Shown here: positions 3 to 38,310 of the stretch, piece by piece
Layout of the letters: every line of letters starts with the position of its first letter
Position numbering within the stretch: the first letter of the stretch is position 1
From: Bugula neritina
Taxonomy: Eukaryota; Animalia; Bryozoa
DNA: 64,000 bases
Assembly (NCBI GenBank): GCA_964035545.1
Contig: OZ037769.1
Span: 10,508,633-10,572,632, forward strand
Reading direction: 5' to 3'
Made by a program: the position numbers and the translations under genes
Notes under the pieces: model-generated
Databases searched by the model: none
Told to the model about the DNA's origin: nothing
What the model saw: the letters and a program-made list of their open reading frames with translations, nothing else

Positions 3-3000
3 GTGAGTCGGCCGCAAGGCCCACCAATACCTCCGGCTTGGGCACTCAAAAACCGCTTTGAAGGTTTGCTTGATGAGGGAGTGAACGACGAATGGGAGCA
101 CAACAGGGATTTTCCTCGGTTGCCCACACGAGCATCAGTCCGAGAATTCACTCGGCCGCCCGTGTGTGAGCGAGACCGAGACGTACCCTGCCCGCCCATG
201 CAACGTCGACGACCCCCTCGCAACCGAAAAGCACAGGTGCATCCCCAATTCCATGCACATGAGGTGTCGCCTCAAGAGACAAATCGCTCAGTGAGCGCCC
301 AGCCATATGGAAGCAGCTATTTCCTCCCCGGCAAAATTGCTGGTAAAGCTGCCACATTCCTGTTGGATACTGGGTGTACCACAAATCTACTGAGTCGACG
401 TCTCTTCGATACTCTCAGTGCCAAGGACAGGGCTAGCCTAGAACCATATGAGGGGGAACACGGCACGTTGGCGGACGGGTCGTGTATTCCTTTCTATGGG
501 GTAATCCAGTTGACTGGTAGAGTCCGTGATCAGATGATCAGTGAGACCTTCATCGTCAGTCAACTCAAGGAGGATGCCATCTTGGGCATGCCATTTCTGA
601 AGCGACACAGGTGCTACATCGACTTTAGCAAGTCGGCAGTAGTGATGGCGGGGCGTGAGCTGGCCTGTGTCGACCGATTTGGCCGACCCTTGGTGGGGGG
701 AGTGCAGGTGGTACAGCGCTGTACTGTACCTGGGCGCTCCCGGGCTACAGTTCGCTGCAGAGTGAACTGTAGGGAGATCTCCGAGCTCGGAGTGGTGGAA
801 GGTGCACTGGGGGGCGTCCAGCTCGCTAACAGTCTGAATAGACTGGATGAGCGGAGGGAGTTCCTGGTCCAGTGTGTAAACCCTTTCACGGAGCCGGTAG
901 AATTACCGGCTGGGTCTCTAGTAGGGAAGTTCCACTCCGTGCAAGAGGAGGATGTAGGGCCCGCGCTGGAAACAGCGGGCGGTGCCCGGGGAGTACCCAC
1001 TAGAGACGGCAGGGGGCCGGTGCCTGAACACGTAGCAGAGTTGTACGAGGATGCCTGTGATGGCTGCGAGAGCAAGCGAGAACGCCTGGAGATGGCGCGG
1101 CTACTCTCTGAGTACAAGGATGTGTTCAGTTGCGGCGACCATGACATGGGTCTGACTGAGACGGTTCGTCATGAGATACCCCTGGCGGCGGGGACGGTGC
1201 CGATTCGGCAGCCGACCCGCCGGTTAGGTCCTGAGAAGGAGAGAGAAGTGAGCCGTCAGGTGCAAGACCTTCTGAACCGGGACCTGATTGAGCCAGGCCA
1301 TGGGGCCTGGAGTTCTCCAGTCGTCCTGGTTCGGAAAAAGGATGGTAGCTGGAGGTTTTGCGTTGATTATCGCAGGCTGAACAGCGTGACCATCCAGGAC
1401 GCTTACCCTCTCCCGAGGATCGATGAGTCGCTCGATGCCTTAGCTGGTAGCAAGTTCTTCAGCACGTTAGACTTGTTAAGCGGGTATTGGCAGGTGCCCC
1501 TGAGTCCTGAAGCACAGGACAAGGCCGCGTTTATAACGCGGGATGGGCTCTGGAAATGGAAGGTGTTGCCATTCGGACTTACGTCCGCACCAGCCACCTT
1601 CCAGCGACTCATGGAGCAGGTCCTGAGTGGACTGCACTGGAAGACCTTGCTCATATATCTCGATGATGTCATCGTCATCTCCCCCGACTTCGACACACAT
1701 GTCAGTCGACTCAGGGAGGTGTTCGACAGACTCCGAGCTGCTAACCTGAAGCTGAAGCCCTCGAAGTGTGCATTACTGCAACGCGAGGTCAAGTACCTGG
1801 GCCATGTAGTTGGTCGAGACGGGGTCGCCACCGACCCCGAGAAGGTACGGGCCGTGAGGGACTGGGCCGTTCCTGTCGACCTCTCTGAATTGCGGGCGTT
1901 CCTGGGGCTGGTAGGGTACTATCGTCAGTACATACCAGGCTTCGCAGGAATTGCACAGCCGTTAAATCGGCTGACCGCAAAGGGGGTGCGATGGCAGTGG
2001 ACGCAGGTTGAGCAGAAGGCATTTGACCACCTGAAGGATCGCCTGGTGGAAGCACCCATCTTGGCGTATCCTGACCCTGCGAAGGAGTACATTTTGGATA
2101 CTGATGCCAGTAACCATAATGTGGGGGCTGTGCTATCGCAGGTCCAAGATGGTCGCGAGGTGGTGGTGGCTTACTATAGCAAGGCCCTGTCGGCGCCTGA
2201 GAAGAACTACTGTACAACCAGGAGGGAACTCTTGGCAGTAGTCAAGGCGGTCAAACACTTTAGACCATATCTATATGGGCGCACATTCCGGCTTCGGACG
2301 GATCATGCGTCCCTGATATGGCTGTGTCGACGGGCAGAACCATCCAGCCAAGTGGCGCGCTGGCTAGAGATCCTGGCAGAGTTTTCTTATCGGATCGAGC
2401 ATCGACCCGGTAAGAAACACGGTAATGCAGATGGACTCAGCCGCCGCCAGGCAGATGGGTGTAAGCAATGCCAGAATATCGAGCGCAGGGACGGTGGACC
2501 CCCTCGCTCGGACGTCGAAGCGCAGTTGGGGAAAGCGGGTGTGTACAGCTGGGAAGAAGGGCAACTCCTGTCCGAATCACCCAACAAAGCTGTTAACAAC
2601 CTTCACGCAAACCCCACGTTGCTTCGGAACGTCAGGGAGCTATGCCGGCTCCAGTCCACGCTACCAGGAGTGGTAGCTGACCTAGTCCGGGCCAAGAAGG
2701 AGGGACGGCGGCCGAGTGAGGCCGAACAGCGAGTGAAGAGTACTGAGTTTAAGTACTTCTGTGACCGCTGGGACTCCCTAAGGTTCAACAGCGATGGGCT
2801 GCTAACGATTACGTTGGCAGTCGGCACCAATCGCAGTGAACGAGAGAGGGTAGTCTGCCCGTCAGCTCTGCGGCGGGAGTTGATCTGGGACACCCATAAG
2901 CAAGCTCACGCAGGAGCTAGCCGGGTGATCAGGTGTCTTCAACTCCAGTGGTTTTGGCCCGGTATGACCCGGGATGTCCGACTCCGGGTGCGGAAGTGCG

Positions 3001-4352
3001 AGGTGTGCCAAGCTAGTAAGCATGGCCGCCCCACTGAGACCGCAGGGAGGCGTCGCCTCCATGCCGGTCGTCCGTGGCAGGTGGTTGCTGTCGATCTGGT
3101 AGGCCCCATGCCCACTACAGCGAGAGGTAATAACTGGATACTGGTATTAACTGACCATTTCACGCGGTGGTCTGATGCACTGGCCATTCCAGATGCGTCG
3201 GCCCCCTCGGTGGCCAGAGCTCTGGATCAACAGGTGTTCTGCTATTTCGGCTTGCCGGAGCAGATACACTCTGACCAGGGCGCCCAGTTTCAGTCGCAAC
3301 TTATGAGCGATCTCTGTAGAATGTGGGGGGTAAACCAGAGTCGGACGACCCCGTATCACCCGCAAGGGAACGGGGTCGTGGAGCGGAACAACCGAATGCT
3401 AGGGGACTCTCTGAGAAGCCTGCTTATCGGTAGGAGCCAGGAAGAGTGGGACTTGGTGTTGCCGCAGATCATGCGAGCGTACCGTAGTACCCCTCACTCC
3501 AGTACACTGGAGACCCCTAATTTTCTCATGCTGGGGAGAGAAACAAGGGTTCCTGAGCACGTAACCTATCATGTTCCGAATCCAGAGAGCAATGTCCACG
3601 ACTACGTGGACAAGCTCGTAAACTGCATGGGGACGGCTCACGAGGTGCTACGTGAGCAGCAGTGGCAGGTCAGGAGTGGTGACTCTGACGACCCACCCTT
3701 ATACAAGGTGGGGGACTGGGTCTGGATGACCAGTCATCGCCGCAGGCGCGGACAGGCAGCCAAGTTGCAGCCGAAGTTCGTAGGTCCCTACTGCGTAATT
3801 GAGGTAATGCCAAATCATACATACAAAGTGGAACGGTCTGGACAAGTGTCGGTCCAGAACGAGGCACGGCTTAAACCTCACTGGGCGAGTCCTGATGCGG
3901 CAGGTCAAGCACCTCCTCTCTTAGAGCCAGCTAGGCGCCCTCCTATGAGGGGGCGGCCCATGGCATATCGAGAGATTGAGGAGATACTGCCAGACCAGGA
4001 CGGGGCGGCTGATGCGTCAGCCGACCAGCCCCAACCTCCTCCACCCCAGGAAGAGGAGGTCGACGCACCTGAAGACCTGTCGGAGCCGGCCCCACCACCT
4101 GTGGAGCCGGTCGACAGGCCCATCGTTCCGGATGAGATGGAAATTCCTCAGGATACTGAGGGAGAGGCAGCTGGGGGAGGGCCACCCGTACTGGTGGACC
4201 CCCCCGTACTGGCGACACCACCCATGGTGGAAGAGTCGCCAGTCGCAGCAAACTCCCCGGTACCGTTGGACCGTAGCCAACGTACCAGGGCGCCACCATC
4301 TTATTTAAAAGACTTCTTGTGTGACTTGGTCGACATGCACAGTATTCTGTAG
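3..4352 (+). CDS. Gypsy Pol polyprotein (protease, RT, RNase H, integrase with GPY/F); open at the left edge
   Basis: Protease FLLDTG; RT LPFGL and YLDD; RNase H ILDTDAS and RTDH; integrase HKQAH...CEVC, VDLVG, SDQG, VERNN; KLQPKFVGPY. Domain order is Ty3/Gypsy. Confidence 0.97.
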   Translation: MSRPQGPPIPPAWALKNRFEGLLDEGVNDEWEHNRDFPRLPTRASVREFTRPPVCERDRDVPCPPMQRRRPPRNRKAQVHPQFHAHEVSPQETNRSVSAQPYGSSYFLPGKIAGKAATFLLDTGCTTNLLSRRLFDTLSAKDRASLEPYEGEHGTLADGSCIPFYGVIQLTGRVRDQMISETFIVSQLKEDAILGMPFLKRHRCYIDFSKSAVVMAGRELACVDRFGRPLVGGVQVVQRCTVPGRSRATVRCRVNCREISELGVVEGALGGVQLANSLNRLDERREFLVQCVNPFTEPVELPAGSLVGKFHSVQEEDVGPALETAGGARGVPTRDGRGPVPEHVAELYEDACDGCESKRERLEMARLLSEYKDVFSCGDHDMGLTETVRHEIPLAAGTVPIRQPTRRLGPEKEREVSRQVQDLLNRDLIEPGHGAWSSPVVLVRKKDGSWRFCVDYRRLNSVTIQDAYPLPRIDESLDALAGSKFFSTLDLLSGYWQVPLSPEAQDKAAFITRDGLWKWKVLPFGLTSAPATFQRLMEQVLSGLHWKTLLIYLDDVIVISPDFDTHVSRLREVFDRLRAANLKLKPSKCALLQREVKYLGHVVGRDGVATDPEKVRAVRDWAVPVDLSELRAFLGLVGYYRQYIPGFAGIAQPLNRLTAKGVRWQWTQVEQKAFDHLKDRLVEAPILAYPDPAKEYILDTDASNHNVGAVLSQVQDGREVVVAYYSKALSAPEKNYCTTRRELLAVVKAVKHFRPYLYGRTFRLRTDHASLIWLCRRAEPSSQVARWLEILAEFSYRIEHRPGKKHGNADGLSRRQADGCKQCQNIERRDGGPPRSDVEAQLGKAGVYSWEEGQLLSESPNKAVNNLHANPTLLRNVRELCRLQSTLPGVVADLVRAKKEGRRPSEAEQRVKSTEFKYFCDRWDSLRFNSDGLLTITLAVGTNRSERERVVCPSALRRELIWDTHKQAHAGASRVIRCLQLQWFWPGMTRDVRLRVRKCEVCQASKHGRPTETAGRRRLHAGRPWQVVAVDLVGPMPTTARGNNWILVLTDHFTRWSDALAIPDASAPSVARALDQQVFCYFGLPEQIHSDQGAQFQSQLMSDLCRMWGVNQSRTTPYHPQGNGVVERNNRMLGDSLRSLLIGRSQEEWDLVLPQIMRAYRSTPHSSTLETPNFLMLGRETRVPEHVTYHVPNPESNVHDYVDKLVNCMGTAHEVLREQQWQVRSGDSDDPPLYKVGDWVWMTSHRRRRGQAAKLQPKFVGPYCVIEVMPNHTYKVERSGQVSVQNEARLKPHWASPDAAGQAPPLLEPARRPPMRGRPMAYREIEEILPDQDGAADASADQPQPPPPQEEEVDAPEDLSEPAPPPVEPVDRPIVPDEMEIPQDTEGEAAGGGPPVLVDPPVLATPPMVEESPVAANSPVPLDRSQRTRAPPSYLKDFLCDLVDMHSIL

Positions 4353-4592
4353 CATGGCGACATTCACAAAGGAGTCTGGGGGAGCGAGGTAATTGATAGC
4401 AGGCGACCCAGTGGCGGATTGAATAGGTCAGCCGGGGGTCAGCAGAGCGTAGCCAAATCACAGCGTATAGGGTGTTACATAAGCACTCTAGCTGTGAGCG
4501 CTCTTTTCAATTACAGCTAGCAAACAGGCAGCACGTCTTTTGCAATAAATAATTTGGCTATCTACGAGCCCTAAGAAAGCAGCAGCATCATT

Positions 4593-5543
4593 ATGTCTAA
4601 TGCAGCAACTGTTTTGGGGGGTGAGACTGAGCCTGTATCCGACGAGATACAGGCATTACTTGACACGCCTACGACTAACTGGGACAGCATGTCAGAAGCA
4701 GGGGTAGACATGCTGTCCGACATACATTTAGCAACATTTACGGACTCCCCGACACACACTGCGATGCAAATTGATACCAACGACTTGACTGATGACTTGA
4801 CTGTAGCCAAGGACACTACTCTAGCACTACCAAGAGCCTTACTGGGACGGACTAACTGGACGACTCGACGGACTCGAACATTGATAGAAGCAATAGTAGG
4901 GACGGACGACAATAGACAATGCACTGAATGTAGAAGAATACTATCGACTACTAGGAGACTGAGAATACACGTTCCACAACACTTTACTGTGACTTTCTGT
5001 CCCTGCGGAGTTCACCACTTCTGCAGGGACACGATACTGAGACACCAACGAACTAGAGACTGTTACGTAGGGCACTTGTATGAAGTCGACGCAGACTCTT
5101 ACACGGAGTTCCGGGACCTAATACTACCCCACGTGACTGACCCGGACCGACGACAGACTCTCCTGGACCACTTCCCCGCTACCCGACCTACAGTAGAGAG
5201 TGACTCTGATGCAGACCCCCAACCCTCCGAAACAACGACTACCTACCCTCCAGACGTAACCACCCAACCTCTACGCGTCGTAGTAACCCGTGCTGGACGC
5301 GCTGTGACGAAGGACTCACAACCCCCAACGACGACAATCTCCTATGTACCCCGACACACCCATAAGAAGAAGAGGGGTGCTAGCAACACACCCCGAGATG
5401 ACAGCGACCCTGACCAATCCCTACTAGCCGACATTAGGAAAATACAACGGCGTATGGCTCGCCTCAGTAAGGAACAGAAGCGAGCAACCACCGAGCTGGC
5501 TAAGTTGCAGACCCGACTAGAGAAACGGCTGGCAAAGAAGTGA
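4593..5543 (+). CDS. Retrotransposon accessory ORF: tandem zinc-finger and coiled-coil protein (316 aa)
   Basis: ATG-initiated ORF between pol and the PPT. Contains C-x2-C-x12-H-x3-H (CTECRRILSTTRRLRIHVPQH), a second C-x-C-x12-H-x5-C finger, HKKKR and a C-terminal heptad pattern. Confidence 0.8.
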   Translation: MSNAATVLGGETEPVSDEIQALLDTPTTNWDSMSEAGVDMLSDIHLATFTDSPTHTAMQIDTNDLTDDLTVAKDTTLALPRALLGRTNWTTRRTRTLIEAIVGTDDNRQCTECRRILSTTRRLRIHVPQHFTVTFCPCGVHHFCRDTILRHQRTRDCYVGHLYEVDADSYTEFRDLILPHVTDPDRRQTLLDHFPATRPTVESDSDADPQPSETTTTYPPDVTTQPLRVVVTRAGRAVTKDSQPPTTTISYVPRHTHKKKRGASNTPRDDSDPDQSLLADIRKIQRRMARLSKEQKRATTELAKLQTRLEKRLAKK

Positions 5544-5788
5544 TAGAGGTGCGGCCACCTACACATGTACCCCCCCCCTCCTGGCTAGTCAAGCAGTGTA
5601 AATAAGTGTTATGGACTACGGCGTGAAGACTCATTTATTATACTTATGTTATCTACTCTGTATATATATTTTCTCTTGTTCAATTGTACCCTAGTTTTGT
5701 AAAGCACTATGTTACCTTCATTATTATTCGTGTGTTACTGTCATGTAAATATTAAGGCTAGAGAGTACTTTTCGATAGGTGAGGAGAG

Positions 5789-6197
5789 TGTGATAGATTT
5801 TAGTAGTGCAAGTATTATGGTATTAATCGAAAAGGTTTACTCTATATTGTTTTATGTATCTTGTGAGTTCGACACTGTCGGAGTGTAGCTATGGGCAGTA
5901 GTGGCACCATTAGTAGCCACCAATCAGGACAATGACATTAATTGATAGCAGGTGGAGCTAGCTACTCGTAGTTGCAGTGCGCTGAGTAGCTAGCCGGCAG
6001 AGCAGCTTGGGACTTCATTTAGAACAGTTGTGTATTAAAGCTCACTAATTATGTAATCGTTTCTATTCATGCTAGCAGTAAATAACCTACTTGTATTTGT
6101 GTAAATAATAAAGTATCTTATCGTAAACAACCTGTCGCAGTGGCTTTGATTAAGTAGACCCACAAATAATAATAGTGAACTGGCAAAATTCACTACA
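5789..6197 (+). repeat. 3' LTR of the Gypsy element (about 409 bp)
   Basis: Starts TGT right after the PPT and ends ACA. Ends are imperfectly inverted (TGTGATAGATTTT vs TGTAGTGAATTTT on the reverse strand). AATAAA at 6107-6112. The partner LTR is not in the window, so the end is inferred. Confidence 0.75.
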
Positions 6198-10268: not shown

Positions 10269-11149
10269 CTTTTATTGGTTGATGACTGGATACCAGAATC
10301 TAGCTTATTAGGAATACATCAAATAATAGTATACCACGTCATGGTATACTAAGTAATAATATAACATATTCTGGTATACTAAGTAATAATATAACACGTT
10401 AAATAACAATATATCATGTCATGGTAGATATAATATAAAACCAAGCATCATGTCATAGTTTACATATTCTAATCAAATATACTATTTGTGATACAATAAC
10501 CTATAACTATGTAAACCAGTGTGAACATTGTGATTGCAACTGCATTGCAATAAACGCTCATTTATACTTGGAAGAGTTTACAATGGAGAAAAGCCTGGAA
10601 TTCTTTGGGAACCATCATATTGATTCACCTATGCCTGTAAATGTAATGCAAACACAATACTTTATACAAATAATAACACACAAGGGTATAAAAAGTTGAG
10701 TGATTCACTTTGCTATGATGGCTACTTATGCTTTGCAGTTGATATTGTCAATGGCAAAATTAGAAGTTAGCAAGCCCAATAAAGTTATATTGACTCTAGC
10801 AATAATTGAAAGAAGTACTCAAAATTTTAGAAGACTTAGCCTACTTTAACAATTGACTTAATTTGACCTGCTGACTTAGGATATCTAGCTAACTTGAAGT
10901 TCAAACTAGGTCTTGTAGAATATTTGAAAATCCTGAAGTCTACTGAAAGTCTACTTTCCTGCATGATATAAATTATATTTCACAGAATAAAAATTGTCTG
11001 CTGCACAAAAACCCATGTAATTTATGTACACAAATTTAAACTAAAGCTATTTATTCATTATGAGAGCAAAAGATGGAGTACTTCAACTTCTATAAAACTT
11101 GATTGAATACTAGTTACTTACTCATTACTATAAATTGATAATACAGGTA

Positions 11150-11364
11150 CTAGTCAACTGCTACCATTACTGCTTCTAGTACTACTACTGCTACTGCTAC
11201 TGCTACTGCTACTACTGCTACTGCTACTGCTACTACTGCTACTGCTACTACTACTACTACTGCTACTACTACTACTGCTACTACTACTGCTACTACTGCT
11301 ACTACTACTACTGCTACTACTACTACTGCTACTACTACTACTACTACTGCTACTACTACTACTG

Positions 11365-11396
<32 letters not shown>

Positions 11397-11740
11397 GCTA
11401 TCAACTACTACTATTGCTACTACTGCTATTAACTACTACTGCTGCTACCGCTGCTACTACTATTACTGCTACTGCTATTAACTACTACTGCTGCTGCTAC
11501 TACTATTACTACTACTACCACTACTGCTACTACTACTAGCTTCCACTACAACTACTGCTACCACTACTGCTACTACTATTACCACTACTACTATACTACT
11601 ACTACTGCTAGTACCGCTACTACTACTATTACTACTACTACTATTACTACTACTGCTATTACTACTACTACTATTACTACTACTACTACTGCTCCTACTA
11701 CTAGCCCTTACTACTACTACTACTAGTTATAACTACTGCT
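11150..11740. repeat. (ACT/GCT)n trinucleotide microsatellite
   Basis: Directly visible imperfect ACT/GCT run of about 590 bp. Confidence 0.95.
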
Positions 11741-12518
11741 AGAACATAGGAGCATAATACTACAGTGTTACTAACTAGTACTAATATACTTTGACACCAC
11801 AGCTCCTGCTCTTACTGCCTCTTACTGCCACTACACATTGACACCACTGTTATTACTTTCACTCTGGCCAACAGCAAATACTAAGCCTAGTAGTGTAATT
11901 CCTTTTTTAAAATGGGGAATCCCCATCAAAAATGCTTGCCATTCAGGCAAAGGGTTGCACTCTGCATTCAGGTACCTGGAGCAATATGACGTTGCTTAGC
12001 AGCAGGCCTTATGCTATAGCTAACCCGTTCAACTAATTAGCTTTTAAAATGGTACTTATATGAACATACATACAATTTTGTAGTTTCAACAGTGACTTAC
12101 TGCTAATTTCTTGACATGCAGTAAGAATAAAATATCAGTCTAATTTCTGCTATTTCTATGGCTATGACTCATGGTAGGCCAAGATCATGATAATTAGCCT
12201 ATTCAATGACATGTCAGCTAAAATGAGGTAAGACCTACCTGCATGAGCTACATGAATTCAGTTCCTAATTACCATAGTTGTTTGCTTATATCAAGCAAAT
12301 TTTTGTGCACACCAAGAAGACTGTATTTAGATGCAAAAGTAACTTCTCTTCTACAAGCACAATTTGGCAACTTCCATAACTGTGTTTTATGGTCAGAAGT
12401 GAAGTGAGACCTGTAATTTTTGGTTTGGTACTCAGGTTTGAGGTGACATTGGCTAATTCCACAGACAGACAACTCCTCAAGACTTTACAAATGTCTGGTA
12501 GAACTAACACTTGGTGTA

Positions 12519-12925
12519 GGGCCACATGACGCATTTTACACATTTTACACGGTGTGCGAGAAAACCCGTACCCGTATAGACCTGCCACACACAGTGCGTG
12601 TGTTGCGAGTGGAAAAATTTATTAGCTAATGATGTTAGCGTTAGCGTTTACTGCTCCCCTACAGACATTTGTTTATAAAACGTGACTTTAGATATTATAA
12701 AAGCGGAAATGCAAATTATATGAAACTGTTTTAATTCAGTTCGCTAAAAGCTAAGAATTAACATAAAAAAGTGTGCTCGCTAAATGATAATAAGCCAATT
12801 AGATCAAACACGCACAAGCTTCCCGCACTTCTTGCTCAGCATGTTAGACGCATGAAAATTCCGCACACAACGTTCCATTTTTGGGCTAAACGGGTTTTCT
12901 CGCATGTCACCATGTCGTGTGGCCC
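12519..12925. mobile_element. MITE with GGGCCACA termini and TA flanks
   Basis: TA|GGGCCACATGAC...TGCGAGAAAACCCGT on the left; ACGGGTTTTCTCGCA...GTCGTGTGGCCC|TA on the right. Confidence 0.7.
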
Positions 12926-13239
12926 TACGCTCATTCTGAAAACTGCAACATGCAACTGCTTCCTACTGCTAGGTTAGTGGGTAAATATTCATCATTACTA
13001 TATCTATGACTGCAGACATGCTACTAGCCATACTTACAGCCCATCAACATAATTATAGCCAACTTATTGCATGAGATAATTGTTTGATCTGATAAACCAT
13101 ACTATATATTTAGCCAAATTATATACATTATGATACAAAAATGATATTTACACTTTTTCACACATATTCACTAGTAGAGTATATACATATATAACTAAAT
13201 GTTTTGAGTAGAAAGAGACACTGTGCAATACTCAGTTGC

Positions 13240-13540
13240 TGTACTCTATATGACTCAGTCACCATACTCTATATTACTCAGTCACCAAACTCTATATGAC
13301 TCAGTCAATATACTCTACATAACTCAGTCACTATACTCTATATGACTCAGTCACTATGCTCTATATGACTCAGTCACTATACTCTATATGACTCAGTCAC
13401 TATACTCTATATGACCCAGTCACTATAATCTGTATGACTCAGTCACTATACTCTATATGACCCAGTCACTATAATCTGTATGGCTCAGTCACTATACTCT
13501 ACATGACTCAGTCACTATACTCTATACGACTCGGTCACTC
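13240..13540. repeat. 23-bp minisatellite (ACTCTATATGACTCAGTCACTAT)n in the GTF3C3 3' UTR
   Basis: About 13 tandem copies starting about 15 bp after the stop codon. Confidence 0.92.
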
Positions 13541-13553
13541 AGCATCAATGTGT

Positions 13554-16500
13554 TCATATAACGCAGTGAGTCTGTATGATATGTGATGCCAACTCCTCAG
13601 AGCCACTAGCCTTGTATATGAGTGACAGGTTGAAGGCAGCGTCTCTTCGTAGGTCAAAGTCATCACCATCTAAACATGGTTGTGTTTCCAGACACTTTTT
13701 ATAGTAATAGACAGCAGCAGAGTTGATTGATAACTGCTGCATAGCTCTACCTGTAATACATTATACTACTACATAGCTCTACATGTAATACATTATATTA
13801 CTACATAGCTTTACCTGTAATACATTATATTACTACATAGCTCTACCTGAAATACATTATATTACTATATAGCTTTACCTGCATTACATTATATTACTAC
13901 ATAACTCTACCTGTAATACATTATATTACTACATAGCTCTACCTGTAATACATTATATTACTATATAGCTCTACATGTAATACATTATATTAACTGCTAA
14001 CTTTATTGGTAACTGCATGTCTCCAGTCACTAGAAAATCGACAATTCTTACCAGTCTACTATCCTCGCCCCCTGTACTACTATCCTTACCCCCTGCACTA
14101 CTATCCTCACCCCCTGTACTACTATCCTCACCCCCTGTACTACTATCCTTACCCCCTGCACTACTATCCTCACCCCCTGCACTACTATCCCCAACCCCTG
14201 TACTACTATCCTTCATTCCCTTAAAATAAGCAGAGTAAAATCATTTCTAAACCCAATGGTTTAAAGAATGTCAACATACTTAGCAATTATAAGTAATATA
14301 AGATACAGCATATGTAAATAATAGAATGTATCGGTCACAGTTGCATGATGAGGAACTTACCAATGTTGTAGAAGCTTTCCTGACACTCTCCTCGGAGCTT
14401 AAGATATTTATTAAGGAAACAGACCCCATGTGCAGCAAGAGTAGCCCTCTGAGTGGTGAACTTCATACACACAATGTGTAGAAAGCAGACACCTATGAGC
14501 AGGTTCAGAATAGGAGAGTCCTCTAACTGCTTGTAGGCATTCATAAACTGATCTACAAACATGGTAACAGAATATATACACAGTAGCTATGACAATGGCA
14601 GAAACAGATGGACTAAAAGGATGACTGCAGAAGAAAACTGAGATAATAATTACGCTACATTGTACACAACAGTTTTGAGCCACTTTTGTGTGGCTACCGG
14701 ATATGAATTTCGAGAGTGATTTTTATATTGAATATAATGTGTTACTTTAAAAAAAGAGTATTCATGAAGCCTGCCACTACACACTCCAACAAGAATTTGA
14801 TATTACAAATGCTAGTTCTTTTAAATAAAAGCTTTTTAAGTTTAGAGAGTAAAAATCAAATGAGATGGAAATGAAAACATTATATAAGCTTTCTGTGTCG
14901 TTTTTGTCAAGTCTCTAGTAACTTAGCTTCTCTCAATAGCAGAGGTCAGACAACTCTCAAACTGCAGTGTCAGATAATTACTGAAAGTGGTCACACTTCA
15001 CTGAACAAATTGTAAACTTGTTGTCAGTTGAATTTAGCAACACAAATCATGAAAAAGGTAAGAATGAAACCATTCATTTGATTTATACTAAATTTTGTGT
15101 TTTGAAAACAATTCAAGCATTCGAAGAGAATAGATTTTGAGCAATATTCATGTTCTAAAACCTTGAAATGCATAATAAATTAGAATTACTTTCACAAGAA
15201 AAACATTTCCAGAACTATTACTTCGGCACTATCAACTGTCAACATTGAAATTACAAATTCTAACAACTATGTATCACCTTATATTTGCCTAACTATTGTC
15301 CAATGTATTTAAAACTAGTTCTAATCAGTTTTTAAAAATTTTCAACTTGAATTTGAGTTACAATAACATAAATAGCGTCAATACTTGGTAAAATCCACTA
15401 GCATATTTGCCAAATAGCAGCTTACAAGTATTGCCAAGTTCCACCAATCTTCTATAATATAATATAACTTTTTTTTTCCCCAGAATTTTAGAGTTGACAA
15501 ACTGACTCTAGTCTCTCTTACATACTCGTATGATGGCTAATATACCAAACAAACAGTGCATTGTTTTATGGTAGAGTCATAAGAGACAGACTTACTAATG
15601 GCAGCTCTGTACGAGGTGTAGATGATACTTCCACATCCATGAGCGATACTAAGAACAGCCGAGTTGGGGTACTAAAAGAATATTCAATTATTATAATATC
15701 TGATAGCAACATGGCAGCCCGCCAACACCGTATATAAGCATTATAATTGCACATATGAATACTAGAATATATAACTAATTTAAAATGTAATATGAGCATA
15801 GTTATGGCTTTACTCATTATTTGATACAAAATGAAACAGAAATGCGAAAAGATTTAATTAAAACTCTCAGAACAATTATACTGAGTTGACTACCAAATGA
15901 GTTTCGACTAGAGTTTATACGTATGACATAATGTAGCTGTCAGAATATTGAAATTATTAAAAATAAGCATCCTGAAAATGAGATGTAAAAATGAAATGTT
16001 GCATCTAAAATTAGGCTAGCATGTTGTTGAAACGATCTTTTACAACTTTTGTATCAACAAACATTTTTCATTGTAAAAAGATGAGACAGAAGATCCCGGA
16101 ATGTTTTCCCTTACCTTGCGTAGTTGTCTTTCACTAAACCTTGCAAATCTCATATCGTGTGGAGTAATAGAAGTGATCATGGAGAAGATATTAGCCACCT
16201 GATTCACCCTGTCACCAAGACCAGCATCAGCTATCTATAACACATGTCAGGGGAGCACAAGTACTAGCAAGTGACAGGTGTGAGTATAACACTACTATGA
16301 CCATACATGAATAGTTCCCACAACTGTAACTAGTAAGACGACGCAACTGATGGGGCAGCGGTAAAATATCACTTTTATGACTCCATAATGCAAACAAATC
16401 CTTATAGTAAGGGAGTTTAGAACTACAAACATATAACATAGCAGTTACCTTCATGACAGAATCTCTGATAAGATCAAATGCCGCACCTCCATGTTGTAAC

Positions 16501-19500
16501 AACACATGACTACACATGCATTTAAAGTCCAGTTCCTAAAAACAATACTCAAGCATTTGAAGGTTTGAGACTTATACTACATAAAATATGTGAACTACAG
16601 GCAAATTAAAAAAAGAAAATATAATTTTCGCTGAGATTTGAATACCCGCAATTGTCTGCGTGATAATGGACATCAATATAGACCTTAGGTATACAGTATA
16701 ATACATTAGATATATACAGTATAATACATTAGATATATACAGTATAATACATTAGATATATATAGTATAATACATTAGACATATACAGTATAATACATTA
16801 GATATATACAGTATAATACATTAGATATATATAGTATAATACATTAGATATATAGTATAATACATTAGATATATATAGTATAATACATTAGATATATATA
16901 GTATAATACATTAGATATATATAGTATAATACATTAGATATATATAGTATAATACATTAGACATATAGTATAATACATTAGATATATATAGTATAATACA
17001 TTAGACATATACAGTATAATACATTAGACATATAGTATAATACATTAGATATATACAGTATAATACATTAGATATATACAGTATAATACATTAGATATAT
17101 ACAGTATAATACATTAGATATATACAGTATAATACATTAGACATATGTGTGATGGAAGAGTTATCAGCTTTGCCAAATATCTACACATTTGGATCCATAA
17201 CAATACTCCTTGACTTCACTATACGTATAACACAAACTCGCTAAGCTCTTCCAAACTTACAAAAGAAGTCAAAACCACACTTTTATTTCACTTAAGCAAT
17301 TTTTAAATATGTTTTTAAACATAACATTAACTAAGTACTATGTAATACTTACTGAATACTATGTAATACTTACTGAATAATATGTAATACTTACTGAATA
17401 ATATGTAATACTTACTGAATAATATGTAATACTTACTGAATACTATGTAATACTTACTGAATACTATGTAATACTTACTGAATACTATGTAACACTTACT
17501 TAATACAACATAAAACTTACTGAATACTATGTAATACTTACTGAATAATATGTAATACTTACTGAATAATATGTAACACTTACTGAATAATATGTAACAC
17601 TTACTGAATAATATGTAATACTTACCTAATACAACATAAAATTTACTGAATACTACATAAATACTCACATCACTCCACTGCTTTTTAGAAAAGAAGGCGT
17701 GTGTACAATATCCACTCTTCACTAGTGAGAATAAAGTGTCGTATCTTTTATGCTGATGAGCTGTTTCACAAGCCTGTATCAAAATGATAAGTATAGGAAA
17801 GTGAAAACAGTTTCAATAAAACTGACTGTCAAAACATGTATGCTTGTATGTCATGTCTTATAGACTGCAGTAGGTAAACTGTAACATGTATTATACACTA
17901 TACTATCTGTATTATACACTATACAATCTGCATTATACACTTTACAGTCTGTATTATACACTATACAGTCTGTATTATACACTATACAGTCTGTATTATA
18001 CACTATATAGTCTGTATTATACACTATACAGTCTGGATTATACACTATACAGTCTGTATTATACACTATACAGTCTGTATTATACACTATACAGTCTGTA
18101 TTATACACTATACAGTCTGTATTATACACTATACAGTCCGTATTATACACTATACAGTCCGTATTATACACTATACAGTCTGTATTATACACTATACAGT
18201 CTGTATTATACACTATACAGTCTGTATTATACACTATACAGTCTGTATTATACACTATACAGTCTGTATTATACACTATGCAGTCTGTATTATACACTAT
18301 ACAGTCTGTATTATACACTATACAGTCTGTATTATACACTATACAGTCTTTATTATACACTATACAGTCTGTATTATACACTATACAGTCTGTATTATAC
18401 ACTATACAGTCTGTATTATAAACTATACAGTCTGTGTATACATGAAGCTATTATATACCATACTGCAGCTTGCATAACACATGTATGTAATTTTCATATG
18501 CATAGGATGATCACAATGTGTTAGTTATTTCACGTTTAGCACAAAGAGTACACCAACAGCATGTGACTTACTTTATTGAATAAATCCCAGCACTCATTTT
18601 CTGTGAGAGAATTTTCACCCGAGACCAGAGCAGGAGCTGAAGTGGAAAATATAACCTAGTCTGAGTTGAGATAACCTAGTCTGAGTTGAGATAACCTAGT
18701 CTGAGTTGAGATAACCTAGTTTGAGTTGAGATAACCTAGTCTGAGTTGAGATAACCTAGTCTGAGTTGAGATAACCTAGTTTGAGTTGAGATAACCTAGT
18801 CTGAGTTGAGATAACCTAGTCTGAGTTGAGATAACCTAGTTTGAGTTGAGATAATTTAGTCTGAGTTGAGATAGGTGAATTCAGCACACCAGAAACAAGC
18901 ACTATACAAGAGATGACAATTCTTTACCCAAAGCTATAAGCACAAGTTGCAATGTCTAAACCTCACAGTAAATGTTATTTGGTGCTGGCTACTTATTTAT
19001 ATTATAGCAGATAATAACATCTCATAAACTGATATTTGATATAATAAAAGTGGTTATGTAAAATATATATGAATATAACACTTACGAGTCTTGTACACTT
19101 CATCATAGTCTGGTAAAATCCTGCGCAGGTATGTTATTCTCCCTTTGTATGGACGACATGCCATCAAGGCTACAATAGTATCAATAGTCTATACTTTATA
19201 CTATAGTATATAACTACATTAGATAATGTATGCGTATTACATGATGTATAATGATGGAGCGTTATATCTTATAGCAATACATATTTTACAATAACTACAC
19301 CATGCAGCACCCATGTATTATATGATATAATATATTATATATTACCACATATGATGAAACAACTACCTTATATAATACATGTAGTTACACATATTACTAT
19401 TATTCAATACAGGCTTGAAAAATAAACAAAGTACAATTACCTGCTTCGTGCTCCACAATTATGTGAGGTGGTAGTTGGCCAAAGAGCAAATATTGAACAT

Positions 19501-22500
19501 ATTTGAAGAACTCGTCTAACTTAGACTGAGAATGCAGCAGCAGACAAGTATGTAGCAAGAGACGTGGTTCTTTGCCCTCCAAACCAGTCCAATCATTTCT
19601 AACAGAACTGGCAGGCACTACAAAATTCTGATAGATACATCAACTGACACAATAGATTACTACAATTATTACATTGAGAGTGACACAGTCCATCTAAAGG
19701 TCTATCAATATCCCACACTTTACTATCATAAGAAAGCTCTAGACTGGCTGTATTTAAACTACAGTATTCTGTACAGTGTACACATATTCTTCTATAATAT
19801 ACGAAGACAGAATGCCATGAAAATCTATAATAGAGGTGTATTATTTTATATTATATAATGCATTGCAGTGACACTTTGGTGGGCATATAAACCATTTCTC
19901 CAATGCGTATATCGTTATGCTAAGTGGAATCAGACACTTTTAAAGAAATATAAGTGCCAATTGGCGACACAACAGCTTTGAGATGCTAATTGATTTCTCT
20001 ACAATGCAGAAATACTGTGGTCAGATAATTGGAAAATCCCAATAAATTAAGCAGAAAAGCAGAAGTTATGACTAGAAATGTGTCAATGTTGACAACACAA
20101 GTCTTCTGCAGCCATATGGTTCTTATACCACTGAGGCTTGACAAATTACACAATATGAAAAGATCTGTGAATGCATTATGAAAACAAACATTTGAAACAT
20201 TTTTGTCTCTCTGTATTACAGAGTAAATGTTTATAGGGTAGAAAAATATGTCGACTAAAATCAGAAGACCTCAAACTTTGCAATGACAAAATAAGTATAA
20301 GATGCTGGAAGACATGAGAGCAATGATAGCTTAAAACGCTATAATTTATTATCATGTTCGAGTCTTGAGATATGAAACATTCTCTATACATGTCCCACAG
20401 AGAAGTTACCAACCTCCACCCTCAGCCAACGTGTGCAAAGCTTCCTGCTCCAACCCCAGTTGTTGCTGTAGCAGAGATAACTGAACTCTAGCAGAGACAT
20501 GGTTGGGGGCCATCTCCACCACCCTTCCATATGCTCTAGCAGCATCTTCTATTCTCCCCAGAGCACTCAGGCACTCGGAATACTTCAGCCACACAGCTGC
20601 CTGTGCAATTCATAAACCCAGTGATTGAGTTTGTACTTTAGAAGGTACTTATATTATACTCATACATACGCATATTATACTATATACTCATACATACGCA
20701 TATTATACTATATACTTATACATACGCATATTATACTATATACTCATACATACGCATATTATGCTATATACTTATACATACGCATATTATACTATATACT
20801 TATACATACGCATATTATACTATATACTTATACATACGCATATTATACTATATACTTATACATACGCATATTATACTATATACTTATACATACGCATATT
20901 ATACTATATACTTATACATACGCATATTATACTATATACTTATACATACGCATATTATACTATATACTCATACAACACGAATATGCAATATCCCAAAATT
21001 TGACAACTTGTTGAGACATCAAATAATCAACACCATGTCACACGATCAACACCATGTCACACGATCAACACCATGTCACACAATCAACATCATGTCCCAT
21101 GATCAATACAATGTCACATGATCAACACCATGTCACACGATCAACACCATGTCACACGATCAACACCATGTCACACGATCAACACCATGTCACATGATCA
21201 ACACCATGTCACATGATGAACACCATGTCACATGATGAACACCATATCACATGATCAATACAATGTCACATGACTGACATAACATCAGATAATCGTCTAA
21301 CTAGAATTTGTTTCTGCAAAAGACAATATAATATAGTATAACTATAATCCTGTACCATTGTACTATTATAAAACTAGCTCATATAAAAACCCTTCCAGCA
21401 CACATTGTGATCAGCAAAGTATACATTTCATGAGGATAAGCAAGGTGTATATATATGAACCTATATGTAACAGCACAGTATACCTGACTGTAGGTATCAA
21501 CTTGAATGAGTTTCTCTAACAGATCTGTAGCCAGTACGTACATCCCATTTAGTTGGAGGGCTTCAGACATGTCTATGAAAAGGTCCCCCACCTCCTCCAC
21601 ACTCTCGTCTTGGAAACTAGCTAACACAGTCTACATAAGTATAGAAAGTATAGTACAGTATGGTATGTTAAACATAGCATAAATATAGCGAAAGTATAGA
21701 GTAAGTATAGTATAGTATGGTTTGTTAAATATAGCATAAGTATAAAGAAAATATAGTATAGTATGTTAAACATAGATAGCATAAACTATATAAAGTGACT
21801 GAGAAAATTTGAAAAAATAACCCAAGTATTAGATGAATAAAGAACAAGCAGGCGTTGCAGATTGGGGAAAAACTATCGACAAATAAACACAAAAACTCCA
21901 AATACTCGTCAAGAAACAAGACAGAAGCTGCGAGAGCACAACTCCAAATTATATTATGACAATCAACTATTGTAGTTCTTGTTTTTCTAAAAAAAAACGG
22001 TGTTGATTAACCTTTTCTTAATTTATTAAAACCAAAACTCATAATATAAATACTTTTAAAAAACAACAGCCTGAAACTACTTGTGTGAAATCCGACGACA
22101 GTGGAAGTACAACTCCAAACTATCCCTTACTGCATATTTAGTATTATCACAGTATTTATGATGTGAGGGTATTCATTACTAACCTTAACTGGCTCAACTA
22201 GAGACTTGTGGGCCAGAGAAATGGCAAGCTTGCTTCTCAAATCAACTGCCAGTTCTGCTGGAACTTTAATTGAACTACTGAAAACAAATTCTACATAAGT
22301 TATTCAATTTATTGATGAATAGTGCTTCTTCATTTTAGGAAGAAATCTACCCAAGAAATACGCATAAGTTGGCAGCATAAACATTTTCATGCAGTTTCAA
22401 GTTTACTGTGTACTATAGATGAAGCAATGCAGTAATAAAATAGAAAATCAACTTGAAATTGACTGGAAAAATCATCAAAACAGATATTATTATAAGTGTG

Positions 22501-25500: not shown

Positions 25501-27044
25501 TTGTAACTCTTTGGGGAGACGACTTCTGTTACGAGATCTACGGCTTTTAGGATGAGAAGATAAAGATACGTCTTCCTCTACACAAAGCATAAAGGAAGAT
25601 CTTCGCAACAAACTCCAGACACAGTAATTGCTATTAAAATGCAAAAGCTGAGTGTTAAGAGCAAACTTGAGCCTAATAGGTGTGACTGTAGCTTCAAGAA
25701 CATCAGTGTGTAGGTTAATAGACCCTTTTCAGAGATCTCTAATTTTCTCTTTACAATTAAGAGTTGTGCCCTCCCAAAGTGAATAAGTTGAACTTTTGTA
25801 TAAAGAGCAAACCCATTAAAAATTTAAAGTTTGGCCGCTACTTAAAATTATAATTATGCTATAGCATTGTTCTTTTAGGGTAGATATTTTAGTAGAAGCA
25901 CACATATTAGCAATTCAAAAAAAAATTAAAAATATTTCTTCATGGATAATTTTGACAAAAATAAACTTGAAAGCATTTATGTGGTTTTGATTACTGAGCA
26001 ATGCTGAAGTGGTACTTCAGCATTGCTCAGCAACCAAAATCACAAAAATGAGTTCAAGTCTATTTTGCTTAATAAATTTAATTTTGAGAGACCACAACTC
26101 TTAATTGTAAGGGGGGACATTGGGGACCTCTGAAAAGGGTCTATCAAAATCTAGTTTAGAAAAAGATGGCACCTATGAATGAGCTGAGACTAGATAGTAG
26201 ATGAATGAATCTGTGAGACATTATCATTCCACTAACAACAACTTGGATTCAATATGACTTTAAACTTGGTGAACTACAAGTTTGCCAAAAGATTGCTAAG
26301 TCATTCTTTTTGTCCACATTAGTTCAACTTAGTAGATGGTTTGAGGTATTTGAAATTGTAATTCAAGACGCTCAAGAAAATATGCAAATATAATTATTTA
26401 CCTCCTTGATCTATTAGATTTTGGTTCTTGGAGTTATTTACCAACATCTGAATAACTTCATCTACCTTGTGTGGCTGATTGGCTATGTTTGAGGTAGAGG
26501 GTGTGGCATACTTAGAAGGATCAACTAAATATTAGTAAAATATTGTATTAATACAGAGCGCCTGAATAATACCTTTTGAATGCACTGTAAAGTCAATGAC
26601 ATTAAAAACAAGATTGCAGTAATAACATATCTCTATGTGGACAACTAAAAAATATATTATTAACTGTGCAGTTTTTGAAATAGGCAATTTAGAGCCAAAA
26701 TGATCACATTGATAGTTGCAAAACACAAATGGTAAAAAACCTTTACTGAATAATTTTAGATTTCAGCTTCAACTAGACAGAAAAATATTGATTGTTTTCT
26801 ACTACTTTTAAGGAAGTAAACTAAAGCAACATTGCTTTAAATACACAAATAATTAACTTCTAATAGCCCAATTTGAAAAAGATGTTGACAGTAGTTGGAT
26901 TATAGATTGCTTATCTGATTTTCAATTCTAACTTTTACCTCCAATAAATTTCAGGGTGTTTTCACTGATGCCTCCATATTCAACATCAAACTCTGCATCG
27001 CTGCCACTATCACTATCACTCAGGGCATAATCAGCAGTTGCCAT
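13554..27044 (-). CDS. GTF3C3: General transcription factor IIIC subunit 3 (TFIIIC102, TPR protein), about 18 coding exons
   Basis: Recognisable segments: RSRLPKELQGLMGEANLMFARG (about 25415-25578), TPR exons (VWLKYSECLSALG, about 20414-20600), YLKLRGECQESFYNIG (14361-14552) and C-terminal DLRRDAAFNLSLIYKASG (13554-13750). Probable ATG at 27044 in exon 26938-27060. Confidence 0.92.
13740..13992. repeat. 32-bp minisatellite, 8 copies, duplicating the last GTF3C3 splice acceptor
   Basis: Unit CATAGCTCTACCTGTAATACATTATATTACTA at 13740, 13772, 13804 ... 13964. Confidence 0.92.
14056..14212. repeat. 21-bp minisatellite (CTACTATCCTCACCCCCTGTA)n
   Basis: About 7 copies visible. Confidence 0.9.
16690..17146. 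repeat. 21-23-bp minisatellite (TACAGTATAATACATTAGATATA)n
   Basis: About 20 copies visible. Confidence 0.93.
17330..17660. repeat. 21-bp minisatellite (TACTTACTGAATAATATGTAA)n
   Basis: About 15 copies abutting a GTF3C3 donor at 17668. Confidence 0.92.
17888..18436. repeat. 21-bp minisatellite (TATTATACACTATACAGTCTG)n
   Basis: About 26 copies; this explains the repetitive ORFs called here. Confidence 0.95.
18651..18873. repeat. 20-bp minisatellite (ATAACCTAGTCTGAGTTGAG)n
   Basis: 11 copies visible. Confidence 0.95.
20650..20972. repeat. 28-bp minisatellite (TATACTATATACTTATACATACGCATAT)n
   Basis: About 11 copies visible. Confidence 0.93.
21026..21272. repeat. 19-bp minisatellite (ATCAACACCATGTCACACG)n
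   Basis: About 13 copies visible. Confidence 0.92.
22654..22858 (+). mobile_element. tRNA-derived SINE, copy 1
   Basis: A-box-like GTGGTCTAGGGG, B-box GGTTCGAATCC, and a body shared with three other copies in the window. Confidence 0.8.
25721..26141. mobile_element. MITE with about 60-bp TIRs, TA flanks and an internal hairpin
   Basis: TA|GACCCTTTTCAGAG...TTACAATTAAGAGTTGTG on the left; CACAACTCTTAATTGTAA...CTCTGAAAAGGGTC|TA on the right. Internal palindrome at about 25962-26060. Confidence 0.8.
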
Positions 27045-27692
27045 TGCAGTTATATTTCTTCTGAATTACAGAAGAAACAACTATAACGCTAAGTGCGGTA
27101 GCTGATTTGATTTCATCAAACCAAATGAAACACCACTGCTACAGCATGTCAATAAAACTTCGCATAAAATATTGTTGGAAATAACATTGCCTTGTTACAA
27201 TTGTCATCTTTATCTACACAATAAAATGTCAAGCTTAAAATTTATAAATAATTGTAATGGTATTTACTATTATTAATTATTCATTCAAATAGTAATTAAA
27301 CCAATGGCAATAGTGTTTCTTTTATGTAACACTATGACTAACAGAGTTGGTAGCCTAATTTTAATTTACAATAATAATGTAAAACATTACTTCTAATTTC
27401 AATTTGATTATAAATATAATCAAATTCAATAAAAATAATATTAAATTTATGATTTAATAGTTGTAGCATTACAATTTCTATAGCTATTGCCTATTAGTAT
27501 TATCGTTAGTATAAGCATTAGTATGGCTATCACTATGAGTATGAGTATGAGTATAACATTAACTATTATCAGGTACTTAGATTTAATATAATTATAAAAC
27601 TGTGTGTTTATAGCGCACGGTTACATACACACGATTCTCTAGCGAACCTTCTTATAGTTGCATAAAAGAGACCAAGATTCTAGTTGTCCGTG

Positions 27693-28715
27693 ATGGCTGG
27701 TGCCCGGAACACTCAAAGCCAACCACAACCAGGATCACAACAGTCTCAAAGTGACAAAAACAAAGACTCAACCAACCCAGAATGCAAAACTTGTAACAAT
27801 GTCGATTGCTATGTTACTAACACAAGGGGCCTTTCTCAAAAATTTGGTGCCAAGTGGATCCAATGTGATTTTTGTGATGATTGGTTCCATGGTACCTGCC
27901 AAAGCCTCACCAATTCAGATGTTGCTACGCTAGACAAAATGGATGAAAAGAATGTGAAATGGTTCTGCAACACATGCCTTCCAGTCATTGAAGCTTCTCT
28001 TCAAGGCCGAGACAGGGTGAACAACAACGGTGAAGACTCTCTTGCGCTTCACAGCACCCACTCAAGAAAGCTTAATAAAATTGAAGACATAATGCAACAA
28101 ATTAATGCAAAGATTGGAGCAACAAACACTGCCCTTGAAGAAAGAATGACAAAACTAGAGAAATCATATGCCGACGCTGCAAAGTCAAATACTGAAAACC
28201 TGAAGAAAGGGATGGAGATCAGCGACAGTGCTCGAAACCTGCTGAAGAAGAGTATTGAACAACGGGAAACTGAAAACAGGAAAAATAATGCCGTTCTTTA
28301 TGGCATAGATGAACGGGAAGGTAAAAGCGCACTGGAGATGATTAAAGACTTAATGACGAGTGATACTTTTCATGCAACTCCGAAACCCCTAAGAGCAATA
28401 CGCTTACAGACCTCAGGACCAGTTGACAAAAACAAACCAAGGCCGATTAAAATAGAATTTCCAGACGAATATTCAAAGTGGGAATTCCTAAAAAGAACAA
28501 ATGCTACACTACGTAGACGCAAGATCTACTGCAAACTTGATGAATGCAAAGAGATTCGTGACCAGCAGTATGCCCTTCGGCAAGAGATAAAGCGAATGAA
28601 AGGGGAAAACAGTGACACTGACCAAGAAACTGACTATCGGATAAGAAATATGAGAATACAGACAAAATCCCGTTCGGGGGAATGGCGATACATGACCAAA
28701 CAGACCAGTGTTTAA
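27693..28715 (+). CDS. LINE ORF1: PHD finger, coiled coil and RRM-like region
   Basis: CKTC...WIQCDFCDDWFHGTC...WFCNTC (C4HC3); RKNNAVLYGIDE and RPIKIEF motifs typical of LINE ORF1. First ATG at 27693. Confidence 0.9.
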   Translation: MAGARNTQSQPQPGSQQSQSDKNKDSTNPECKTCNNVDCYVTNTRGLSQKFGAKWIQCDFCDDWFHGTCQSLTNSDVATLDKMDEKNVKWFCNTCLPVIEASLQGRDRVNNNGEDSLALHSTHSRKLNKIEDIMQQINAKIGATNTALEERMTKLEKSYADAAKSNTENLKKGMEISDSARNLLKKSIEQRETENRKNNAVLYGIDEREGKSALEMIKDLMTSDTFHATPKPLRAIRLQTSGPVDKNKPRPIKIEFPDEYSKWEFLKRTNATLRRRKIYCKLDECKEIRDQQYALRQEIKRMKGENSDTDQETDYRIRNMRIQTKSRSGEWRYMTKQTSV

Positions 28716-33810: not shown

Positions 33811-34042
33811 TGTTCGGTGTTCATGTAAACATTTATTTCTAATTTGTTATTTTATTATTTTACTATTTTTTGTCATAATCTTAATAATTAATTGTATCAC
33901 TTATTGTAATAGTTTTAGTATTTTCGTATATATATATTGTGGTAATAAATCACGGCTTCGGCCTCTTACGTTTATCAACTAACTCGAGCACGTTCTGTCT
34001 TTTCACGATAGCTGAAATAATATCACAAATCAACATAAAACA
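33811..34042 (+). repeat. 5' LTR (232 bp, TGTT...AACA)
   Basis: Identical by eye to 38079-38310. TATATATA followed by AATAAA at 33944-33949. Confidence 0.95.
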
Positions 34043-34086
34043 TGGTGCCCCGAGTCTAATTATTATTAATATTACACTGAAATAAC

Positions 34087-38037: not shown

Positions 38038-38078
38038 AACAATCATATCTAAATAGCTTTTTTCTATTCTGTGGGAGA

Positions 38079-38310
38079 TGTTCGGTGTTCATGTAAACAT
38101 TTATTTCTAATTTGTTATTTTATTATTTTACTATTTTTTGTCATAATCTTAATAATTAATTGTATCACTTATTGTAATAGTTTTAGTATTTTCGTATATA
38201 TATATTGTGGTAATAAATCACGGCTTCGGCCTCTTACGTTTATCAACTAACTCGAGCACGTTCTGTCTTTTCACGATAGCTGAAATAATATCACAAATCA
38301 ACATAAAACA
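38079..38310 (+). repeat. 3' LTR
   Basis: Direct repeat of 33811-34042. Confidence 0.95.

Follow-up and report, generated by a model that had tools for sequence, protein, structure and literature searches.

Cer1, a Ty3/Gypsy element of Caenorhabditis elegans, carries in the slot of its third open reading frame (ORF) a gene for the nuclear regulatory protein CERV, which the passages of the paper considered here describe as a nuclear RNA export factor that is made from a spliced mRNA and confined to Caenorhabditis (PMC10309623). The third ORFs of LTR elements in bdelloid rotifers encode env proteins, GDSL esterases, DEDDy nucleases or transmembrane (TM) proteins (PMC5408684, in part), and some of the additional ORFs that follow pol in plant elements give nuclear proteins for which a regulatory role has been proposed (PMC7264820, in part). 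Foamy viruses possess an internal promoter and the protein Tas (PMC7828637, in part). In view of Cer1 and of the rotifer esterase and nuclease ORFs, the statement in a preliminary description of the present locus that a third ORF in Ty3/Gypsy elements is typically env is too strong.

Zinc fingers of the C2H2 type are mainly known as tools with which hosts silence transposons, and a deep Gypsy lineage that encodes a finger protein of its own would reverse that use. Here we describe such an element, with a third ORF (ORF3) for a double zinc-finger protein, in a window of the bryozoan Bugula neritina (the window being the whole stretch of 64,000 nucleotides that was analysed). It resembles the rotifer and plant elements in having an extra ORF downstream of pol (PMC5408684, PMC7264820, both in part); the word 'zinc' is absent from the main text of these two papers. 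The domains described for CERV are H, M and G, together with a loop of the C4 type, whereas ORF3 has a pair of C2H2 and CxC-x12-H-(C/H) fingers within a different predicted core, and the ORF3 domain is in some relatives fused to Pol, unlike CERV in that account (PMC10309623, in part). With foamy viruses the element shares a 3′ accessory gene and an activator-like anatomy, and like them it may have an internal promoter, here one that would resemble the LTR (PMC7828637, in part). However, foamy viruses are vertebrate retroviruses with env and the ORF3 element is without it, and ORF3 gave no match to foamy Tas in Pfam or BFVD at E≤0.001.

The preliminary description had called this a 'complex' retrotransposon. 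The 'complex' Gypsy element is not new as a concept, because Cer1 already has CERV. The ORF3 protein family itself appears to be new, CERV having been compared by description; alongside CERV, it would give animal LTR retrotransposons a second type of regulatory gene. It is a large family without a Pfam name, confidently folded in prediction and with a specific candidate binding site.

The element and its third reading frame

The window begins inside gag-pol, and the 5′ LTR, the PBS and most of gag lie outside it (Table 1). The Pfam hits on Pol follow the Ty3/Gypsy order of protease, reverse transcriptase (RT), RNase H and integrase, and a polypurine tract (PPT) precedes a 3′ LTR that starts with TG at 5789; a chromodomain at the integrase C-terminus, the mark of chromoviruses, is absent among the 11 Pfam hits on Pol.

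Table 1. Features of the ORF3 element, in window coordinates
Feature	Position	Strand	Basis
gag end/pol ORF, open at 5′ end: protease, RT, RNase H, integrase (H2C2, rve, SH3/GPY-F-like), Pro/acidic tail	3..4352	+	Pfam, ORF list
Non-coding pol-ORF3 spacer, 240 nt, with the pol/ORF3 frame closed by three stops; possible internal promoter	4353..4592	+	
Spacer stretch collinear with LTR 5939-6118; 111/161 aligned columns identical	4390..4563	+	
14-nt word TAATTGATAGCAGG, exactly as LTR 5939-5952; candidate binding site	4390..4403	+	
ORF3, accessory protein, 316 aa, ATG to TGA	4593..5543	+	
Acidic N-terminus (net charge -14 over aa 1-75), predicted disordered; possible activation region	4593..4817	+	
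Compact conserved core, aa 74-204: N-terminal helix, C2H2 finger, CxC-x12-H-(C/H) finger, strand, two helices	4812..5204	+	
HKKKR basic motif; candidate nuclear localisation signal	5361..5375	+	Sequence
Long C-terminal helix, aa 273-316, coiled-coil-like	5409..5540	+	AlphaFold2, heptad score
Polypurine tract GAGGAGAG	5781..5788	+	
3′ LTR, TG...CA; end (~6197) inferred from terminal dinucleotide and drop in contig cover	5789..6197	+	

The claim that an intact ORF of 316 aa between the pol stop (4352) and the PPT and 3′ LTR is part of the element is borne out: none of 1000 shuffles of 4353-5789 contained an ORF as long (mean 81, maximum 219), and contigs from three runs of one study span the whole of ORF3. 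ORF3 shares the reading frame of pol, and simple read-through of the pol stop is ruled out because three in-frame stops intervene.

The following protein features named in the preliminary description are present: two fingers, an acidic N-terminus, the HKKKR motif and a coiled-coil-like C-terminal helix. Finger 1 (C110-x2-C113-x12-H126-x3-H130) conforms to the classical pattern C-x2-C-x3-F-x5-L-x2-H-x3-H, with position 117 occupied by L in the window and by F in 40% of relatives, and with L123 in 70%; it also matches classical fingers by profile (SALL3, E 3.7e-6). Finger 2 reads C136-x-C138-x12-H151-x5-C157. The marks of a Krueppel-type array were not found, the second finger being of CxC type and the linker consisting of 5 residues rather than being of TGEKP type. 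Net charge runs from -14 in residues 1-75 to +9 in residues 273-316, and in its best heptad register the C-terminal helix has hydrophobic residues at 69% of a/d positions. ORF3 has no TM helix, as had been stated, because its maximum 19-residue hydropathy is 0.74. The marks of env or of errantiviruses (signal peptide, TM anchor, fusion glycoprotein domain) are likewise missing on the evidence of this hydropathy ceiling and of a Pfam search in which the window's ORF3 had no hit.

AlphaFold2 predicts a confident core and C-terminal helix for full-length ORF3, with disordered flanks; the core alone (residues 74-204) reaches a pLDDT of 94.8 and a pTM of 0.86, and the homodimer prediction score is 0.14. 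When the core was compared with 48,161 solved chains, none matched at Z≥5 and there was no match over the whole domain, Foldseek against PDB and BFVD returned nothing at E≤0.001, and VIA-align with the whole model found generic helices only. The best structural matches were DNA-bound tandem fingers covering the finger pair only, as with Kaiso (Z 3.6, rmsd 2.8 Å, 57 aa) and SALL4 (Z 3.3, rmsd 2.6 Å, 51 aa); such low Z-scores show no more than the common finger fold. Overlaid on the tandem C2H2 fingers of Kaiso/ZBTB33, SALL3/4 and WT1, the pair fits at 2.2-2.8 Å over ~50-57 residues, but it differs from them in the CxC start and variable last ligand of finger 2, in its short linker and in the 130-aa core that surrounds both fingers.

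The ORF3 family and its linkage to Pol

A full HMMER search yielded 177 family representatives at E≤0.001 (150 of them listed), and of 2610 candidates from a word-indexed search 33 proved to be relatives, including one that is identical to the query and hence not independent. The family has no Pfam entry, its members receiving weak zf-C2H2 hits only, and the top ESM Atlas matches are unnamed clusters. No description of it was found in the literature, although curated repeat libraries (Repbase, Dfam, GyDB) and supplements may contain one; the passages considered of PMC13524379, PMC8220671, PMC2774666, PMC6338049 and PMC13228809 mention no comparable zinc-finger ORF. A match to an already characterised Gypsy ORF family, which the preliminary description had named as a result that would speak against it, was thus not obtained in Pfam, by Foldseek or in the literature.

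In a core alignment of 111 rows (the window and 110 selected relatives), from which the generic multi-finger host protein P0130 was excluded, as from all alignments, mean identity is 29%, and C110, C113, H126, H130, C136, C138 and H151 are each conserved at 93-99%, alongside W89, G139, R145, V165 and D166. The eighth and last ligand, at the end of finger 2, is variable: 78 of the 128 proteins (of 196) with the two-finger pattern have C there, 47 have H, and 3 lack the ligand. Basic residues are retained in the recognition helices (R/K121 in 89%, R122 in 69%, R145 in 75%), with D146 in 68%. Close relatives are 76% identical in the core and 52-54% in the flanks. The layout recurs across the family, in counts that include near-duplicates: N-termini are net acidic in 76 of 88 members, the heptad score beats all 20 shuffles in 67 of the 87 members whose tail is of sufficient length (in 65 near the C-terminus), and a TM-like stretch occurs in 3 of 129 rows. 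Downstream of the fingers, 76 of the 129 rows have a cluster of basic residues.

An organism is named for three of the 30 clusters looked up, all bryozoans (Watersipora subatra once, Bugula neritina twice). The bryozoan NCBI proteins among P0194, P0191, P0036/P0182 and P0043 contain the ORF3 finger domain, in two tandem copies in the Watersipora protein and in P0043; in the tree, P0194 branches as the sister of the clade with the window's ORF3 (support 90). These proteins may be domesticated host genes; for KAF6037488.1, KAF6040922.1 and XP_067940964.1 either an element or a host setting comes into question.

Direct linkage to Gypsy Pol is seen in P0190 (1460 aa), where RNase H, integrase and an SH3-like module are fused in frame to the finger domain; over 723 columns the Pol part shares 51% identity with that of the window (61% in the integrase), and over 94 columns the finger core shares 38%. 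Pol-like sequence also lies upstream of the finger domain in P0146 (E 5e-5), P0118 (E 2e-4) and P0071 (E 0.015), and an integrase-tail motif does so in P0138 and P0151, which makes 6 of the 106 relatives that have at least 30 aa there. Three Bugula-cluster rows that reached E 0.04-0.06 against Pol were counted as chance matches. In a quick 110-row tree built on few columns, Pol-linked relatives fall on either side of the midpoint split, whose SH-aLRT support of 93 is below the tool's mark of 95. Linkage of ORF3 to the element in relatives is seen at the level of proteins. Scans of viral contigs, metagenome contigs and prokaryote genomes gave no related DNA locus, which means nothing in collections with so little animal DNA. 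Word-limited searches for fusions of greater length, which missed even P0190, yielded none. In P0118 and P0146 short Pol pieces are joined straight to the finger domain, an arrangement that suggests internally deleted copies or spliced forms.

The preliminary description had proposed to judge its claim by conservation among copies. Within the listed differences between related copies, which are not independent of one another (9 in ORF3 among 40 listed of 1175), eight ORF3 codons are changed and six of them synonymously, against an expectation of 29% (p=0.01); the ORF is unbroken by the listed indels (12 of 47), none of which falls in ORF3 and six of which fall in the spacer. This codon count, which is not a dN/dS, may be taken as a rough sign of purifying selection. 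ORF3 is a real, conserved, element-borne, non-env accessory gene.

Possible functions of ORF3

The proposal that ORF3 encodes a nuclear nucleic-acid-binding regulator holds in so far as a conserved non-env accessory ORF is concerned, and the fingers, the basic motif and the lack of a TM helix fit such a protein; its nuclear location, its DNA or RNA target and its effect on the LTR are predictions. We tentatively favour, at somewhat less than an even chance, a reading in which the product is the element's own DNA-binding transcriptional activator, expressed from an LTR-derived internal promoter and self-activating. A weak promoter in the spacer, resembling a diverged copy of the middle of the LTR, would yield a short ORF3 mRNA; the protein would enter the nucleus by means of its basic motif and pair through its C-terminal helix; the finger pair would bind a site common to spacer and LTR, for which the 14-mer is a candidate, while the acidic N-terminus would bring in the transcription machinery. 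The resulting positive loop would switch on full-length gag-pol RNA, comparable to the internal promoter and Tas of foamy viruses. Tas binds both foamy virus promoters and has an acidic activation domain.

The similarity between spacer and LTR, which was found after the fact, hints at such an LTR-derived promoter. Its alignment score was equalled by 1 of 1000 shuffles and ranks top among 47 windows of the element, a common word as long as the 14-mer arose in 2 of 2000 shuffles, and the match with the 14-mer left out was equalled in 2 of 1000. Support is nevertheless only moderate, because an equally high score occurs in 9 of the 1054 control windows taken elsewhere, of which six lie in simple repeats and one is probably a related solo LTR. 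The 14-mer could alternatively be a site for a host factor.

Several points count against an activator. The linker between the fingers has only 5 residues, and position 6 of the finger 1 helix is mostly hydrophobic (V/I/L in 75%), which is unusual for base reading; the in-frame Pol fusions, moreover, suit a tethering of integrase at least as well. A bolder proposition appears doubtful to us: that an old invertebrate Gypsy lineage independently evolved a foamy-virus-like switch, in which a promoter duplicated from the LTR drives a zinc-finger transactivator encoded by the element and specific for sites in both promoters. Under this proposition the finger domain has been joined to Pol in certain branches and perhaps domesticated as bryozoan host genes. 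If true, it would mean that zinc fingers serve the transposon in its conflict with the host.

C2H2 fingers can also bind RNA, and ORF3 might be the terminal exon of an mRNA that is spliced and whose product, similar to CERV or Rev, binds the unspliced genomic RNA and exports or stabilises it. We consider this rather unlikely. The slot is the same as that of CERV, which is described as having a Cys loop, a basic NLS and a leucine zipper as well as its spliced mRNA (PMC10309623, in part), although by the same description the CERV domains are unlike the ORF3 core. Candidate splice acceptors lie at 4515-16, 4519-20 and 4604-05, and among the 10 relatives whose called sequence extends upstream of codon 10, six lose similarity abruptly at an 'AG[ED]' peptide, a boundary that may point to a splice acceptor and to an mRNA spliced like that of CERV; against this, the N-terminal Met peptide of the window recurs in three relatives (P0011, P0068, P0069). 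The RNA folding of the spacer is not distinctive, because windows in pol fold equally well (z -1.0 to -4.9, against -3.4 for the spacer), and Rfam gave no hit on the spacer.

The Pol fusions open a reading that the preliminary description missed, namely that the finger domain, either fused to Pol or separate, tethers integrase or the newly made cDNA to selected sites in host DNA or chromatin, much as the chromodomain does in chromoviruses. In its favour, P0190 has an open in-frame fusion, the integrase tail is continuous with the fingers in P0138, P0151 and P0071, and in the window ORF3 is in the frame of pol. We nonetheless regard targeting as quite unlikely: three stops part the two ORFs in the window, the relatives with Pol-like sequence upstream are the small minority counted above, and tethering requires neither an acidic N-terminus nor a separate promoter-like spacer.

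ORF3 could also be an anti-silencing factor that binds element DNA and blocks or removes host repression, or that diverts the zinc-finger repressors of the host by acting as their decoy. Elements encode such factors in plants, VANC being one precedent, and the core changes fast relative to Pol (in P0190, 38% identity over 94 aa against 61% in integrase), as proteins engaged in conflict do. Pfam and structure comparison found no enzyme or chromatin-reader domain, however, and this improbable reading overlaps with that of an activator to the point that sequence cannot separate the two.

That ORF3 is a passenger, a host zinc-finger gene recently captured and carried without use, is very improbable, since three NCBI bryozoan proteins of the family, possibly host genes, are outweighed by Pol linkage on either side of the deepest split (subject to its SH-aLRT of 93), by the synonymous excess and absence of listed indels in ORF3, and by zinc ligands kept at so low a mean identity.

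Other features of the window

The Pro-rich end of pol (window 3841-4560) folds strongly on both strands, with z from -2.6 to -6.3 against shuffles; this may be compositional, since pol elsewhere reaches -4.9. A stretch at ~26414-26727 aligns along the entire LTR at low identity; it is likely to be a solo LTR, now diverged, from a related family. The window further contains a second Gypsy element (33811-38310), with two identical 232-nt LTRs and a single gag-pol frame of 1318 codons (34081-38037); its LTR follows directly after pol, without a third ORF. An apparently intact non-LTR retrotransposon lies at 27684-31456, in which a PHD-like Cys/His motif in ORF1 and endonuclease and RT motifs in ORF2 were recognised by eye. 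Many short-period tandem arrays, with units of 3-32 nt, are found at 11000-21300, 45600-45900 and 59900-60900.
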